Below, in pieces: positions 575 to 6,260 of a DNA stretch of 7,586 nt. The DNA is from Escherichia coli (GTDB taxonomy: Bacteria; Pseudomonadota; Gammaproteobacteria; Enterobacterales; Enterobacteriaceae): NCBI RefSeq assembly GCF_003334815.1, contig NZ_QOWO01000067.1. The stretch is one strand, 5' to 3'. Every line of letters starts with the position of its first letter. Position 1 is the first letter of the stretch. A program made the position numbers and the translations under genes. The notes under the pieces were generated by a model, which did not search any database, was not told the DNA's origin, and saw only the letters and a program-made list of their open reading frames with translations.

Positions 575-1547
575 TAGTCACACCACCTTTCATTTTTATC
601 ATTCCCATGACTAAATCAAACTGCGGGGATGAGCTCAGATAAAAGCGCTCATCAGGAACCTTAGTCAGGTTCTTCACAGCCTCGGCCACAATTTCAGCCC
701 CACCACCAACACACATTACATGTGTATAGTCGGTGAAACGGCTGATGACATCATTAACTCGTTTAATAAGCAACTTCTGCCGTTCATTGATAACATTAAT
801 GATAGACTCACGCTGTTCAGCATTATAAATGCGACGGGAAAGGTAGTCAGGTTCATTACGGTGCACAATGATATTGTCAGCCTGGAATGAGCTCACTCTT
901 GTATTAGCATGTACAGCCATCTGTTCCTTAACCCCGGATGTAATCAGGGACACGCCGATATTCGGATCACACCAGGTTTTTGTAATCCCTGTCATTTTGC
1001 TACGAACATGCGACACATCAAGAGTTGTACCACCGAGATCTACGATCAAAAGGGATTCATCATCCTCAAGCCCCGCAAGAACACTGAAACCAGCGGGAAT
1101 ACTTTCAGGAAGAACGGAAACACTGCGAATAACAAATGCATCACTCCCCTGCACCCGTACTTCACGCATCACATTTTTTTTCTTTCTTTCAATGTTTTGC
1201 TTATTTTTCTGATTGTTGGCGTCAAGGTATTCAGAGATCGGCAATGTGACGATGACATCAACAGGCTGCGCTTTCAGGCCGGTCTGCTGTAGCGCATGCT
1301 GAATGGCCACAACATTCACATCACTGTACTGATAGCGTGTTTCAGTCGTTACGACAGCATCAGCACTTAATGGATCAAATGAAAACTTCTCGCCGTCGAT
1401 CTCGTAATTAGCCGGAGCAGCATCATCCAGTAAACTAAAAGACCATTCCGGTTTAAAGCTGTTAGGGCTGATTAACGTTTTCACGTCACCATCCTCCAAC
1501 CAGGCAAGTTTAATGTTGGTAGAACCATCATCAATAAAGATTTTCAT
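567..1547 (-). CDS. parM: ParM/StbA-like actin-type plasmid segregation ATPase
   Basis: The track ORF 567..1616 contains MKIFIDDGSTNIKLAW..., the phosphate-1 DxGxT/S motif typical of the ParM/StbA N-terminus, plus VDLGGTTLDV (phosphate 2) and CVGGGAEIV (adenosine motif). I place the start at the ATG 1547..1545 (M24 of the track ORF), which has GGAG 8 nt upstream and gives 326 aa, a typical ParM length. The stop overlaps the parR start. Confidence 0.9.
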   Translation of the reverse strand: MKIFIDDGSTNIKLAWLEDGDVKTLISPNSFKPEWSFSLLDDAAPANYEIDGEKFSFDPLSADAVVTTETRYQYSDVNVVAIQHALQQTGLKAQPVDVIVTLPISEYLDANNQKNKQNIERKKKNVMREVRVQGSDAFVIRSVSVLPESIPAGFSVLAGLEDDESLLIVDLGGTTLDVSHVRSKMTGITKTWCDPNIGVSLITSGVKEQMAVHANTRVSSFQADNIIVHRNEPDYLSRRIYNAEQRESIINVINERQKLLIKRVNDVISRFTDYTHVMCVGGGAEIVAEAVKNLTKVPDERFYLSSSPQFDLVMGMIKMKGGVTNE

Positions 1548-1960
1548 AACCAGTCTCCGTTGCTCATAAACAAATAGAAAAAACAAACATGCTTCATACA
1601 TGCAATGTATATTCAATTATAATGAAAAAACGGTCTTTCTGAAAGGACAAATGCAACATAAAAACACGATAAATTGCATGTACATTGTACACACAACTTT
1701 AAGACCAGAGGAAATCATAGATACAAAAACATTATGAAGGTTATATGTGACACATAAATGCAATATAAAAACATCGTGGACATCATGGTTCAGGTTAAGG
1801 GAAAAGGAATGAAATGGTGAAACTGAGAGGAAAGGAAAGCGGTGACGAATCATGTCACCATAAACAGAAAGATGTCTAATGGGGACTCTTTAGGTACGTG
1901 AAGAATCCCCATAACGCATTTAAAAGACACACATCAGATACCCTTAAGGTATCCGATAGT
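1548..1960. promoter_or_regulatory. parC-like centromere/promoter region upstream of parMR, also the downstream flank of the ParA/RHH pair
   Basis: AT-rich non-coding stretch with repeated ATGCAA/TTGCAT units (around 1600, 1650, 1673, 1758). The unit AAATGCAA(C/T)ATAAAAACA occurs twice (about 1649..1667 and 1756..1774). Palindromes: ATACATgcaATGTAT near 1596..1610, GGTGAC-N7-GTCACC at 1839..1857, GATACC-cttaa-GGTATC at 1937..1953. The position matches a type II centromere/promoter; exact binding sites are not determined. Confidence 0.55.
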
Positions 1961-2269
1961 TTATTGACCTATTGCACCATCACGTTCAAGCTTCTCTCTT
2001 ATAGCCTCAATAATATATGAGCTAAAATCCAGAGATGTTTTACTGGTCGCTTTAAGTTCCGCATGAGCTTCAAAATACGACAGCGGTATGGCCTTAAGAT
2101 TCTTAGCCTTCGTCCTGGCAGCCACGGGACGACCTGAAACTTCCTCTGCACCTTCATTTGGCTGAGACGGGGCTGTTGCTGTTACGGCAGAAGAAGAAGT
2201 TTGTAATCTGGCAGAATCCACCAGGTTTTTCAGTTTTTCAGCCTGTGCACTAAATTTCGCTTTGCTCAT
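1961..2269 (-). CDS. Small ribbon-helix-helix-like DNA-binding protein, candidate ParG/ParB-type partner of the upstream ParA-like ATPase
   Basis: 102-aa ORF directly downstream of the ParA-like gene on the same strand. The C-terminus (AIPLSYFEAHAELKATSKTSLDFSSYIIEAIREKLER) fits a beta-strand/helix/loop/helix RHH pattern, preceded by a low-complexity, probably flexible N-terminal tail. Shine-Dalgarno is weak and an 86-bp gap separates it from the ParA-like stop, so the assignment is an inference from context. Confidence 0.55.
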   Translation of the reverse strand: MSKAKFSAQAEKLKNLVDSARLQTSSSAVTATAPSQPNEGAEEVSGRPVAARTKAKNLKAIPLSYFEAHAELKATSKTSLDFSSYIIEAIREKLERDGAIGQ

Positions 2270-2355
2270 GAGATAACCCAGGATGTTTGTTAGATACTTA
2301 AAAGATATCCATTAAAAGCCCAAAGGATACTATATGGATACCCAATAGACACACC

Positions 2356-3000
2356 TTACTGTTTGTTATTTTCAATCAGATGATTGATTTCTTCGATCAG
2401 GGCAATAACTTCCTTACCTCCTGCCGAATAGCGCCCATGAACAGACTCAGTGATTCCCATCCCAGTCTCAATGACATCCTCAAATTCTGCACGAGCAGAA
2501 ATGCGGCTCTTCATCAGCTTCAGATGTTTGAACGATGGCAGGATTGCATCAAGCTTAGGGAATTTCTTCTTGTTAGGATTAACTTTACAGAGATACAGGT
2601 GAGCAGTTATATCGGTCCCCATGATAGAGCTGATTTCGTCCAGTACTCCATCAAAATGCATCAAACCAATACGTTCAGTCAGGGAGTCTTTTGAAGGGAC
2701 AATAACGCAGTCTGCAAAGGCAATCGCAGTACGGGTAAGATCTGAGTCAAATCCCCCACAGTCAATAAGTAACGTCTTATCGCTGTTCTTGTAGGGAGTC
2801 ATAATTTCGATTAACTCATCCACTGTTTTGGGTACTTTCACGGAAATTTCTTTTCCTTCAGGTCTCAGCCCCAGAATGATAGAAAGCCCGGTATGAGTAT
2901 CCAGATCAACTGTATCAGACTTCATTTCACCAACAATGTTTACGGATGAAGTTGTCTTACCCACACCACCTTTGGGATGCGTATTAGCAATAACAGGCAT
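2356..3000 (-). CDS. parA: Small ParA-family (ParF-like, type Ib) deviant Walker-A partition ATPase
   Basis: Deviant Walker A KGGVGKTT near the N-terminus, LLIDCGG and a VIVP Walker-B-like hydrophobic strand. Start placed at ATG 3000..2998 (M23 of track ORF 2356..3066), with GGAG 7 nt upstream, giving 214 aa, the size class of type Ib ParA/ParF proteins that lack an N-terminal HTH. Confidence 0.8.
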   Translation of the reverse strand: MPVIANTHPKGGVGKTTSSVNIVGEMKSDTVDLDTHTGLSIILGLRPEGKEISVKVPKTVDELIEIMTPYKNSDKTLLIDCGGFDSDLTRTAIAFADCVIVPSKDSLTERIGLMHFDGVLDEISSIMGTDITAHLYLCKVNPNKKKFPKLDAILPSFKHLKLMKSRISARAEFEDVIETGMGITESVHGRYSAGGKEVIALIEEINHLIENNKQ

Positions 3001-3179
3001 AGTGTATCTCCAGAATCCACATGTAATACCCATAAAGACCCCATAAGACACCTTTCGGATATCCAAGAGGTACTCAATAGATGTTTTTTTACTCTATACC
3101 GGTCCTGCATGTCAACAGAATATGAAATACCGATAATATATCCATGAGATATCCGAAAGGGATTTAAAAAAGTCAGAGC
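3001..3179. promoter_or_regulatory. Promoter/operator region upstream of the ParA-like gene
   Basis: Non-coding gap between the recombinase stop (3180) and the ParA-like start (3000). Contains the palindrome GGATATCC (3057..3064) and GATATCC (3148..3154), related to GGATAC/GATACC motifs on the other side of the operon. Confidence 0.4.
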
Positions 3180-3959
3180 TTATGGAATTCTTTTGAGCAT
3201 AGACACCGCATCGGACTCAGGCATCGAAAACTGCACCCGGTGCCGTGCAGCCACATCCAGTGCAAACACCTTCGTGTAGACCTCCGTTGAGCTGATGGAC
3301 TTATGCCCCATCAGGCTCTGCAGGACCTTCAGCGGTATACCGGCATACAGCATATGCATCGCATAGGAATGGCGGAACGTATGTGGCGTGACCGGGACAG
3401 AGAACGTCACACCGTCAGCGGCAGCGGCGGCAACCGCCTCCCCAATCCAGGTCCTGACCGTTCTGTCCGTCACTTCCCATATCCGCGCTTTCTCTGTCCT
3501 GCCTGTTCGTTTATTACGCCGTTCCATGGGGATTTTCAGTGTGGCCACCATCGTCTGCAGCTGGCTGACGTACCAGGCGTCGGAGAGCGGAACCAGCCGG
3601 TGAGTCTGCTGACCGGCGGGCATTCTTCCTGCCGTCCTGGCGGCTTTTTCCGTCCGTTGTTTCAGGGTCGCAAGCTGCACAAACGGATACGGAGGCGTGA
3701 GCGAAAAATCCCCCCGCGTCAGCGCCAGTGCTTCATTAATGCGCGCACCGGTGTTCCACAGTGTGGCCAGCAGCATCTTGCGGCGCAGATCCGGGACGTA
3801 ATGGAGCAGGGCGCTCACTTCAGGGGCCAGCAGGTATTTGGGCAGTTCATCATGAACCATCGACATCTGGCGGAGTGCCAGCGCTGCCGGATAATCGATG
3901 GCAACAGGAAGCTGAGCGGCATCCCGGGCATGGTGGATCGGTGCCGGCAGGTGCTGCAT
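3180..3959 (-). CDS. Tyrosine site-specific recombinase (plasmid resolvase/integrase family, ResD-like)
   Basis: The C-terminal region carries the tyrosine-recombinase box II signature HTFRHSYAMHML...LMGHKSISSTEVYTKV (His-x-x-Arg, then His, then the catalytic Tyr), and an ARINEAL-type box I arginine sits earlier. Start placed at ATG 3959..3957 (M52 of track ORF 3180..4112), 1 nt after the stop of the upstream ORF, giving 259 aa. Overall it resembles plasmid multimer-resolution recombinases of F-like/I-like plasmids, as recalled from memory, not searched. Confidence 0.85.
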   Translation of the reverse strand: MQHLPAPIHHARDAAQLPVAIDYPAALALRQMSMVHDELPKYLLAPEVSALLHYVPDLRRKMLLATLWNTGARINEALALTRGDFSLTPPYPFVQLATLKQRTEKAARTAGRMPAGQQTHRLVPLSDAWYVSQLQTMVATLKIPMERRNKRTGRTEKARIWEVTDRTVRTWIGEAVAAAAADGVTFSVPVTPHTFRHSYAMHMLYAGIPLKVLQSLMGHKSISSTEVYTKVFALDVAARHRVQFSMPESDAVSMLKRIP

Positions 3960-3960
3960 A

Positions 3961-4374
3961 TCAGTGTTCACTCCACGGGGAAACGTCGGGCAGGTTTTCC
4001 ACAACCCTGTATTTTCCCGGATAACGGAGCTGGTTACCGCCACGCGTCCGGACGGTGACAACAAAACCCCCGCCCTGGTTGTTTTCGGGGAGCAGGCGAT
4101 CGCACTGCTCACTCAGCATGTGGATCACAAACGGCGCATCGCTGCCGTCTTCAAATATCAGTTCCAGCGCATCGCGGCCATCCAGCGTTCCCTTACTGAT
4201 GATGACGTACTCAGCCCCCCGCATCTCCCTGAGTAAATGTTTTGCCGCATCCGGGACAAGCAGCCTGGCTTCGCCGGCATTCCAGCTGAGGTAGACATAT
4301 CCGGCCTGCGCCTGTACAGACTGCCAGTAATCCGTTCTGGCGACAGCCTGACCTTCATTCTCAATAAAAAACAT
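3961..4374 (-). CDS. Hypothetical 137-aa protein, first gene of the recombinase operon
   Basis: Track ORF 3961..4413. I start it at ATG 4374..4372 (MFFIENEGQAV...) because of a strong AAGGAG 8 nt upstream. The stop TGA at 3963..3961 is separated by 1 nt from the recombinase ATG (TGATATG). No recognisable catalytic motif or membrane segments; family not recognised. Confidence 0.6.
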   Translation of the reverse strand: MFFIENEGQAVARTDYWQSVQAQAGYVYLSWNAGEARLLVPDAAKHLLREMRGAEYVIISKGTLDGRDALELIFEDGSDAPFVIHMLSEQCDRLLPENNQGGGFVVTVRTRGGNQLRYPGKYRVVENLPDVSPWSEH

Positions 4375-4410
4375 GGGTGACTCCTTTTTTCTTTTCCGGG
4401 CAGGGACGGT

Positions 4411-4495
4411 CATGCGATAACGTCATCCATCATCACTGCCCTTACCGTCACTCCGTCTGATAACATCATGCCGTTATCATCATCACCATGATAAC
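4411..4495. repeat. GATAAC/CATG repeat cluster, candidate recombination site or operator for the adjacent recombinase operon
   Basis: GATAAC at 4416..4421, 4459..4464 and 4490..4495, inverted GTTATC at 4473..4478, and CATCATCAC twice (about 4429..4436 and 4479..4486). Three GATAAC copies abut CATG. Lies 40 to 120 bp upstream of the operon start at 4374. Confidence 0.35.
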
Positions 4496-4811
4496 AAGCA
4501 TCCATATAACCACGCCGTTAAATTACCGGAGAGCCGTTTCCGTCAGATCCGACTTTTCGGAATATCACAACTTTCCGGAAGTGTACCACGCTGAGGAAAT
4601 AATCATATCGCTGTTTTCCGCCCCTGCGCGGCGCATCACAGGTCAGGGAGATGACACAACATATAGTGTCATCAGCAGCTGAATCCGGCACCACATGTTG
4701 TGCTGACGGGAGGTGGCGTTGTGTGGGGGGAGAAGAAGATCCGTAACCGCCGGAAACCGGATCTGCGCGGCGGGAAACGGGCAAGTGATATGGTAATTGA
4801 GCAATACACAC

Positions 4812-4867
4812 AAAATCATATCAGATATGATTTTCATCATTGATGATAGAACCATATCTGATATTAT
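4812..4867. promoter_or_regulatory. Palindromic operator array and candidate sigma70 promoter for the + strand operon starting at 4943
   Basis: Perfect 23-bp palindrome AAAATCATATC-A-GATATGATTTT (4812..4834); 13-bp palindrome TCATCA-T-TGATGA (4834..4846); 11-bp palindrome ATATC-T-GATAT (4854..4864). Candidate -35 TTGATG (4840..4845) and -10 TATTAT (4862..4867) with a 16-bp spacer overlap the palindromes. Confidence 0.45.
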
Positions 4868-4942
4868 AAGAAATCAGGAGCACACAAATCATACAGGATA
4901 TTATTTTTACCTGTCAGAACATTATCAGATGGAGCGTGCAGG

Positions 4943-5806: not shown

Positions 5807-6154
5807 TTACACATCATCCCATGGTGGCAGCCGGTTAACTTTCCTGCGCCACCAGTGGAAAGAGGCCATGCACAGTCCGAACAAAAAACCACCCGTGATA
5901 CTTATAATAATGGCCTCACCTGCCACCATTCCTGACGGCCCCCAGTAGGTAAACCACATTACACATCCCCAGGAAATGCCCCATAAGCCCCCCGTCAGCA
6001 CCGTGACCTGCCAGAACGGCATAAAGGGTAATGGCGGAAGCCGGATACCCAGCCGCCATAGAATACGCAGAAGAGGAGGGGCATAATTGCTCCGCCACAT
6101 CTTTTTGCTGTCCATCAGGGCAATGGCCCGGGCTTTTTTCTGCTCAAAGGTCAC
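5807..6154 (-). CDS. Small inner-membrane protein (two predicted transmembrane helices), function unknown
   Basis: 115-aa ORF with a GTG start at 6154..6152, preceded by GGAGG at 7-nt spacing. Two hydrophobic segments (VTVLTGGLWGISWGCVMWFTYW and MVAGEAIIISITGGFLFGLCMASFHWW) and a positively charged C-terminus. Convergent with the 196-aa gene (19-bp gap between stops). Confidence 0.55.
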   Translation of the reverse strand: MTFEQKKARAIALMDSKKMWRSNYAPPLLRILWRLGIRLPPLPFMPFWQVTVLTGGLWGISWGCVMWFTYWGPSGMVAGEAIIISITGGFLFGLCMASFHWWRRKVNRLPPWDDV

Positions 6155-6192: not shown

Positions 6193-6260
6193 TTATTGTT
6201 ATTGATTATTATTATCATGCTGTGATTATGTTATCACGCACCGGTACACGATAACAATAA
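6193..6260. promoter_or_regulatory. Inverted-repeat-flanked promoter region upstream of the immunity gene
   Basis: Perfect 10-bp inverted repeat TTATTGTTAT (6193..6202) and ATAACAATAA (6251..6260), separated by 48 bp that contain two TGATTAT-N-TTATCA(T/C)G direct repeats. An AAGGAG Shine-Dalgarno lies 7 nt before the ATG at 6273. Confidence 0.4.

Follow-up and report, generated by a model that had tools for sequence, protein, structure and literature searches.

A 413-bp gap, at positions 1548-1960 of the 7,586 nucleotides of Escherichia coli DNA analysed here (contig NZ_QOWO01000067.1, assembly GCF_003334815.1; hereafter the window), separates yegA from parM, two genes read from the minus strand. 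Judged from its sequence, the gap is probably a composite of cis-acting sites that serve two plasmid partition systems: on the yegA side, the downstream repeat array of a type Ib system (ParA-YegA) and, on the parM side, the promoter of a type II system (ParM-ParR) with probable ParR repeats. It is not a new kind of element; two known kinds of site lie side by side. An earlier note on this DNA had taken its mixture of motifs to mean that more than one DNA-binding protein uses the region. That very probably holds, but the mixture reflects two adjacent modules and not one heterogeneous type II centromere.

The array on the yegA side was recognized by its likeness to those of the operon that precedes it. 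Read along transcription, the three non-coding stretches around parA-yegA keep an unbroken 11-bp register, with units like GGATATC, GGGTATC, GGTGTCT and GAGTACC. The upstream array (3001-3180, minus strand) has about three to four units before a TTGACA -35 element and about eight from there to the parA start, and the middle array (2270-2355, minus strand), between parA and yegA, has about eight YegA-type units. Lag 11 gave the strongest autocorrelation both in the upstream array (z 5.4) and in the middle one (z 3.4); downstream of yegA, lags 22 and 11 gave z 2.5 and 1.9. The downstream array consists of five minus-strand units, at 1955-1945 (CGGATACCTTA), 1944-1934 (AGGGTATCTGA), 1933-1923 (TGTGTGTCTTT), 1922-1912 (TAAATGCGTTA) and 1911-1901 (TGGGGATTCTT), and about three convergent units on the plus strand, at 1870-1880 (AGATGTCTAAT), 1881-1891 (GGGGACTCTTT) and 1892-1902 (AGGTACGTGAA). 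We trained a position matrix on 3001-3180 and 2270-2355 only and scanned the whole window with it, at a score cut-off of at least 6. Seven matches fell in 1867-1957, against a mean of 0.33 and a maximum of two in 590 other segments of 91 bp, and none of 2000 shuffles reached seven; 1548-1850 held no match. The minus-strand matches at 1944, 1933, 1922 and 1900 are in steps of 11. Moreover, the 30 nucleotides at 1867-1896 repeat 3027-3056, part of the upstream array, in inverted orientation and with 80% identity.

Homologous ParA-YegA modules on IncF, IncFII(K) and other plasmids (L007 to L010, with YegA identities of 84, 69, 63 and 52%) have arrays at the same three positions, where the window-trained matrix is enriched 4-9 fold relative to the parA coding sequence. 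Because L009 and L010 keep the downstream array without parM alongside, we assign the array to the type Ib module and not to parC, the type II centromere. We conclude with good confidence that 1870-1955 belongs to the ParA-YegA system and is the third of that system's arrays, the downstream one, built of 11-bp G(G/T)(A/G)TATC-like units. The palindromes at 1933-1957 (10-nucleotide arms, ATCAGATACC/GGTATCCGAT) and 1881-1910 (GGGGACTCTT...AAGAATCCCC) arise from these units: a GGGGA...TCCCC palindrome forms because units converge, and a GATACC...GGTATC palindrome because the unit core is itself nearly palindromic. YegA dimers would coat the arrays, giving a partition complex that the Walker-type ParA would move over the nucleoid, and the upstream array would double as an operator. 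The models for this proposal are pB171 par2 (parC1/parC2) and pESBL ParABS.

On the parM side, we found a predicted sigma-70 promoter for parM-parR at 1616-1644 (minus strand), with a -35 element TTTCAG (1644-1639), a 17-nucleotide spacer and a -10 element TATAAT (1621-1616). A promoter scan read the same site as TTCAGA-16-TATAAT (10 of 12 matches), the best in 1400-3300, on the parM strand. The ribosome-binding site GGAGAC (1558-1553) and the parM ATG (1547-1545) follow, together at 1545-1558 (minus strand); this start is the one annotated in identical records. The earlier note had counted at least four ATGCAA/TTGCAT units in the region, and four are indeed present, at 1600-1605 (+), 1651-1656 (+), 1674-1679 (-) and 1758-1763 (+), among seven in the whole window. 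Four copies of this hexamer occurred in none of 2000 dinucleotide-preserving shuffles of 1548-1960; the count is nevertheless weak by itself, since some hexamer reaches four or more copies in 72% of shuffles and the choice of hexamer was made post hoc. The 18-bp repeat described in the same note, AAATGCAA(C/T)ATAAAAACA, is found at 1649-1666 and 1756-1773, with 17 of 18 positions identical and 107 bp from start to start. No repeat in 300 shuffles was as long when up to one mismatch was allowed (maximum 16 bp, mean 11.4), and the one seen here extends to 22 bp, 18 of them identical, at 1647-1668 and 1754-1775.

Two classes of 11-mer occupy 1574-1775, one resembling TGTTTTTAT (T5) and the other ATTGCATKTAY, and the autocorrelation of 1775-1548 peaks at lag 11 (z 2.8). 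An unbiased 11-mer search returned GTTTTTATATT as the best family, with five copies (1772, 1730, 1665, 1631 and 1583), all in one orientation, a result matched by 2.5% of shuffles (p ~0.025). Allowing at most one mismatch, ATTGCATKTAY has three copies, at 1596-1606 (-), 1673-1683 (+, inverted) and 1754-1764 (-), and the rest of the window has no other; 1607-1617 and 1647-1657 hold degenerate copies. The ATGCAA hexamers form the centers of these 11-mers. T5 and TTGCAT units adjoin in both of the 22-bp composites, which we propose as ParR sites on the minus strand. The distal one, GATGTTTTTAT|ATTGCATTTAT (1754-1775), contains the 18-bp unit 1756-1773 and the ATGCAA at 1758-1763; the proximal one, CGTGTTTTTAT|GTTGCATTTGT (1647-1668), lies directly upstream of the -35 element and contains the 18-bp unit 1649-1666 and the ATGCAA at 1651-1656. 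A third T5-type unit on that strand, AATGTTTTTGT|ATCTATGATTT (1712-1733), a member of the GTTTTTATATT family, is also a proposed ParR site. Finally, four contiguous 11-bp units at 1574-1617 (minus strand) are candidate operator or ParR sites: ATTGAATATAC (1617-1607), ATTGCATGTAT (1606-1596, with ATGCAA at 1600-1605), GAAGCATGTTT (1595-1585) and GTTTTTTCTAT (1584-1574). They overlap the -10 element and the expected transcription start (predicted near 1609), a position where an autorepressor would bind.

Conservation was assessed in an alignment of nine variants of the intergenic region (80-100% identity). In the most diverged lineage, ParR is 97% identical overall and residues 1-109 are identical; therefore its DNA specificity should be unchanged. 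Over the whole intergenic region 66% of columns are invariant. The corresponding figures are 73-89% for the T5 units, where the adjacent TGTTTTT(A/G) is nearly invariant, 36-73% for the TTGCAT halves and 91-94% for the leader and ribosome-binding site (15 of 16 columns for the ribosome-binding site with the ATG). In the distal composite, the T5 half has 8 of 11 invariant columns and the TTGCAT half 6 of 11; in the proximal composite, the values are 9 and 4 of 11. The unit at 1712-1733 (17 of 19 columns) is the best-conserved block of the upstream region. The -10 element has five of six invariant positions and the -35 element two of six. The ATGCAA hexamer, which the earlier note had pointed out, is not the constrained core, because it is kept in only 8, 4, 4 and 6 of the nine variants at its four positions; the exception is the copy just downstream of the -10 element, kept in eight. 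At that place two perfect ATTGCATGTAY units stand in tandem in the L007/L021 lineage, and L019 has gained an exact 11-bp tandem copy, ATTGCATGCAC (alignment columns 383-393), making a third. Such whole-unit gain is typical of iteron arrays. The L007/L019/L021 lineage also has 12 bp inserted upstream of the distal T5 unit.

From its position, its repeats, their conservation and the arrangement in relatives, we regard 1574-1775 as parC-like, and on balance the evidence favors its being the ParR-bound promoter and parC of ParM-ParR. ParR would bind the 11-bp units, chiefly those of the TGTTTTT(A/G)T class, often paired with ATTGCATKTAY into a 22-bp composite, both upstream of the -35 element and across the -10 and start region. 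This binding would repress the promoter and build a complex capturing the ends of ParM filaments. The expectation that a type II centromere flanks the promoter was borne out in part: the region lies upstream of a true ParM gene and its promoter-like site is flanked by repeated 11-mers, but these are not classical tandem arrays.

Several observations weigh against this interpretation. There are few proximal repeats, and these are degenerate, dispersed (spacings of 42, 65, 34 and 48 bp) and not arranged in two tandem sets like those of R1; their statistics are modest (p ~0.025 for the best family), and a looser family, TGCATTTATGT, with eight copies at up to three mismatches, was discarded as not significant (p = 0.2). 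The T-tract signal may in part be that of AT-rich promoter DNA, or of the U-tract of a hairpin at 1671-1699. Nowhere in the region is conservation lower than in the -35 element and the spacer, and relatives in which the DNA-binding half of ParR is identical have lost three of the four ATGCAA copies. As to the type Ib array, the orientation of the YegA units is ambiguous, the unit core being nearly palindromic.

Though this is unlikely, the type Ib array may be the sole protein-binding centromere here, the proximal features being the ordinary promoter, leader and terminator of AT-rich DNA. The ParR sites would then be fewer (for example, only 1574-1617), or ParMR would be a poorly functional passenger. 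The modest significance of the proximal 11-mer families, the frequency with which shuffles contain some hexamer at least four times (72%) and the terminator-like hairpins at 1932-1958 and 1671-1699 are in keeping with this, as is the partition of a related IncI1 plasmid, pESBL, by a single type Ib system (PMC7602700). It accounts poorly for an 18-22-bp repeat above all shuffles, for T5 units more conserved than their surroundings, for the gain of an 11-bp unit in L019 and for the clear iterons found at the same place in relatives. Nor does a passenger role sit easily with ParM and ParR, which are intact and conserved in more than 1000 plasmids.

We doubt that the tandem order of the two sets of sites is itself functional, whether because a YegA-coated array, the hairpins and a weak promoter-like site at 1849-1878 gate transcription into parM-parR, or because the array joins the ParR-parC complex in one combined segrosome. 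If true, two mechanistically different partition machines would be coupled via one intergenic region, which would match, in tandem, the cross-talk known from the divergent double locus of pB171. Between the modules lies a polypyrimidine spacer (1777-1840, minus strand; invariant fraction 0.61, against 0.66 regionally), in which we found no match to the YegA-type matrix and no 11-bp periodicity. It tolerates 12-bp insertions, both in L020, where it has an AACCTG-AACCTG expansion (alignment columns 180-191), and in the L007 lineage.

Another proposal, which we hold to be very unlikely, is that the ATTGCATKTAY/ATGCAA units are sites of a third factor, a host nucleoid protein or another plasmid regulator, beside the T5 units of ParR, so that three proteins share the region. 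The two 11-mer classes do alternate, and the TTGCAT class varies independently of ParR. An H-NS-like stretch, CGATAAATT, at 1667-1675 (+) also fits: it resembles the high-affinity H-NS motif TCGATAAATT. Its C is T in five of nine relatives. Set against this, the units are poorly conserved, we could match them to neither a candidate protein nor a known motif, iteron arrays too vary in number, and the ParR repeats of pSK41 are themselves bipartite, of 20-22 bp.

Four minus-strand hairpins, at 1932-1958, 1879-1912, 1841-1859 and 1671-1699, fold better than shuffles, and two of them are terminator-like. The first, directly after the yegA stop codon and overlapping array units 1 and 2, has 12 pairs (-15.6 kcal/mol, z -4.9), is followed by GUGUGUCUUUU and may be the intrinsic terminator of the parA-yegA operon. 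The hairpin at 1671-1699 is an inverted repeat with 14-nucleotide arms, AAGTTGTGTGTAC-AAT-GTACATGCAATTT (-12.4 kcal/mol, z -3.7), and is also terminator-like because the T5 unit 1658-1668 follows; its 3' arm is the inverted copy of the 11-mer ATTGCATGTAC (1673-1683, +), which contains the ATGCAA at 1674-1679. At the end of the array, GGTGAC-7-GTCACC (1841-1859; -9.2 kcal/mol, z -2.8; 16 of 19 columns invariant) could be a weak hairpin, and it overlaps a weak promoter-like match, TAGACA-18-CATGAT, at 1878-1849 (-). We think it most improbable that three of these hairpins (1932-1958, 1879-1912 and 1671-1699) are what functions in the gap, terminating or attenuating the RNA and so controlling how far transcription of parA-yegA continues into parM-parR, with the repeats secondary. 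All three fold significantly better than shuffles, and in the nine variants pairing is kept in 94% of cells, with G-U and A-U changes that make sense only on minus-strand RNA. Yet the covariation of the four hairpins in these variants did not rise above the shuffle control (207 of 500), and we therefore make no claim of a structured RNA; a scan of 1400-3300 against Rfam gave no match at E<=1. The stems, moreover, are AT-rich and weak, and more distant type Ib homologues have direct-repeat arrays in which the palindromes are not kept.

Equally hard to maintain is an interpretation close to that of the earlier note, that the whole of 1548-1960 is one extended parC in which ParR recognizes ATGCAA units and palindromes, for although its position upstream of parM, the four ATGCAA copies, the 18-bp repeat and the palindromes would suit it, 1870-1955 matches the ParA-YegA arrays and such an array occurs downstream of yegA homologues without an adjacent parM, relatives identical in the N-terminal half of ParR lack ATGCAA at three of its four positions, and neither ATGCAA nor T5 units extend beyond 1776. 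The palindromes themselves are more numerous than the three then listed: six were found, the remaining two being ATACAT-3-ATGTAT (1596-1610) and TATGTG-1-CACATA (1744-1756). We considered the latter (TATGTGaCACATA) as a CRP-like or operator site and rejected it, as it is unconserved in relatives (TGTATCACA, TGTATTGCA, TGTATTACA) and its spacing is unfit for CRP. Two open reading frames, encoding 78 residues (1617-1853, -) and 45 residues (1600-1737, +), were likewise dismissed as genes, their frames being broken by single-base indels in close relatives.

Matches to the window were found in thousands of enterobacterial plasmids, and those over its full length, at 98-98.6% identity, are of IncI1 type; we identify the window as the stability region of an R64-type IncI1 plasmid. 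Of 72,556 PLSDB plasmids, 1082, nearly all of IncI1 type, carry the 413-bp region at a coverage of at least 80%. According to annotated relatives, the minus strand encodes a ParR-like protein (158-574), ParM (567-1547, its end overlapped by parR) and, beyond the gap, YegA (102 residues, 1961-2269, stop codon 1961-1963) and YefA, the Walker-type ParA (214 residues, 2356-3000), followed by the resD recombinase gene and, farther along, colicin Ia/Ib-type genes. We read parA(yefA)-yegA (type Ib) and parM-parR (type II) as two tandem partition operons. The same four genes are found on R64, whose ParA, YegA and ParR share their protein accessions with a near-identical relative of the window. In the record LC567069 (L002), ParM and ParR are labeled "type I plasmid partitioning protein" and yefA "type II", the reverse of the usual classification.

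The identity of ParM is unambiguous from its domains (Pfam StbA_N, E=8.2e-82; ParM C-terminal domain, E=4.4e-72), and the protein is 52% identical to R1/R100-type ParM/StbA. ParR/StbB, of 138 residues, matched PF10784 (Plasmid_stab_B, E=1.1e-27) and the pB171 ParR structure 2JD3 (E=2e-6); NCBIfam returned nothing for it. ParA has a deviant Walker A motif, KGGVGKTT, at residues 11-18, a match to NCBIfam ParA_partition below the curated cut-off (E=1.6e-14) and weak Pfam matches to MipZ/AAA_31/CbiA. An alignment of 27 YegA homologues showed a conserved N-terminal helix, a variable linker and some 45 strongly conserved C-terminal residues, and we infer a protein made of an N-terminal helix, a disordered linker and a C-terminal ribbon-helix-helix-like domain. 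NCBIfam and profile searches gave no family match for YegA, phmmer against the Protein Data Bank (PDB) only chance matches, and Foldseek of a YegA model against the PDB no usable match. YegA is named "molecular chaperone GroEL" in many GenBank and RefSeq records, a name unsupported by the family, profile and structure searches.

A few further features of the window and its relatives deserve mention. Most close relatives have an insert of 3.5-6.6 kb between yedA and ydfA (window ~4414-4942, L002 5375-9503), carrying a gene for a DUF4238 protein and others, or ISEcp1-blaCMY-2. The window is without it, and a few plasmids, such as NZ_CP147055, are collinear with the window there. The ParA-YegA module and resD also occur on the IncF plasmids L005 and L006, adjoining ccdAB, where IS1 or IS66 cuts at the window equivalents of ~1764 and ~1819 have removed or separated parM. 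We do not regard these truncations as natural module boundaries; they are merely IS1/IS66 insertions. The hexamer GATAAC has 11 copies in the window where 3.0 would be expected (0 of 200 shuffles). A cluster of four lies at 4416-4495, upstream of the minus-strand open reading frame 3961-4413, and two, with degenerate copies, at 6196-6257, between the open reading frame 5807-6154 and a colicin immunity gene; these clusters may be operator sites of some regulator. GATAAC shares its core with the ParB octamer of pESBL, GATAACAA; the window has no pESBL-type ParA or ParB.

Plasmids of the R64-type IncI1 group are among the commonest carriers of extended-spectrum β-lactamase and AmpC resistance genes in E. 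coli and Salmonella, and exactly this double partition module is found in more than 1000 sequenced plasmids. In the literature that we searched, R64-type cis-acting sites were unmapped and no experimental study of yefA or yegA was found. The sites delimited here predict which fragments should exert partition incompatibility and offer targets for plasmid-curing or interference constructs. They do not reveal a new mechanism; both parts are previously unmapped examples of well-known kinds of site.

Among known systems, TP228 ParF-ParG-parH pairs a small ParA-type ATPase with ParG, a protein with a flexible N-terminus and a C-terminal ribbon-helix-helix that binds arrays of short repeats and autoregulates. 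The window has a similar pairing of a small ParA-type ATPase with a small partner protein. In contrast, parH lies upstream only, and YegA and ParG share no significant similarity (BLASTP E=2.7, a weak comparison).

The ParABS system of pESBL (IncI1) occupies the same backbone slot beside impB and also combines a small Walker-type ParA with a ParB of about 100 residues without a recognizable motif, as well as short direct and inverted repeat arrays upstream and downstream of the operon. This type Ib system, with its GATAACAA octamers, has been demonstrated by electrophoretic mobility shift assay, green fluorescent protein foci and mini-F stabilization (PMC7602700). Unlike the window, pESBL has unrelated proteins, with different accessions, an octamer in place of 11-bp GGTATC-like units, and no adjacent ParMR. 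We rejected a pESBL-type parS in the region: the system is a different one, and 1136-2200 contains no match to GATAACAA with at most one mismatch. A direct comparison of pESBL (NC_018659, L004, 50-51 kb) with R64 (NC_005014, L023, 45.4-48.2 kb) shows different partition modules in the slot beside impB, namely ParA WP_000587689 with a 100-residue ParB in pESBL, and ParA-YegA with ParM-ParR in R64. This conflicts with a report of R64 parAB in pESBL at 100% conservation (PMC10286972).

The nearest ParM relatives outside the R64 type are found on L011 (IncF) and L013 (IncL/M, pCTX-M3/pOXA-48-like), with 66% and 64.5% identity, respectively; their ParR proteins are 35-38% identical. Both have a promoter at the same distance from the parM start (TTTACT-17-GATAAT in L011, TTTACA-17-AATAAT in L013), with evident tandem arrays of T-rich 11-bp iterons on either side. 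Unlike the window, these iterons are tandem and uniform, GTATTTTTCT-like, with neither a TTGCAT class nor an adjacent type Ib array. For pCTX-M3, whose ParM is the 64% relative, a centromere has been reported upstream of the parM homologue (PMC8125031). R1-type parC follows the same logic as L011 and L013, but with A-rich iterons.

In R1, two sets of five 11-bp iterons flank the par promoter (PMC2241845). The window resembles R1/NR1 parMRC in having ParM followed by a PF10784 ParR, a cis-acting site (in the window a proposed one) upstream of parM that overlaps the promoter, 11-bp units, and an A5/T5 tract beside CA/TG (CCCAAAAACA in R1, TATAAAAACA on the plus strand of the window). Autoregulation by ParR, as in R1 (PMC2241845), is expected here too. 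Whereas R1 has ten tandem iterons in two tight blocks over 159 bp, the proposed units of the window are dispersed over ~200 bp and fall into two sequence classes, paired as 22-bp composites and with one inverted copy. The A-tracts also lie on opposite strands relative to parM in the two systems.

A parallel for the locus as a whole is the double par locus of pB171. There, par1 (parMR) and par2 (parAB) reportedly share parC1, and parC2 lies downstream of parB. In both pB171 and the window, type II and type Ib systems adjoin, the ParR proteins are related and one intergenic region carries sites, proposed ones in the window, for both centromere-binding proteins. We found no close relative of the pB171-type ParA at E<=1e-10 in a plasmid collection that was without pB171 itself (NC_002142). 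In pB171, the operons are divergent and share parC1, the ParB and ParR sites interdigitate, and the systems cross-regulate. In the window, by contrast, the operons are in tandem, the type Ib downstream array abuts the parM promoter region, and the two sets of sites are ~95 bp apart with no detectable overlap. Dual arrays upstream and downstream of a type Ib operon have been reported for pB171 par2 and pSM19035 (PMC7602700). The pairing of type Ib with type II, already known from pB171, is common, with 971 PLSDB accessions combining an RHH-type (ribbon-helix-helix) type I system with a type II system (PMC13245405), and the locus described here provides a natural tandem case to compare with the divergent one of pB171.

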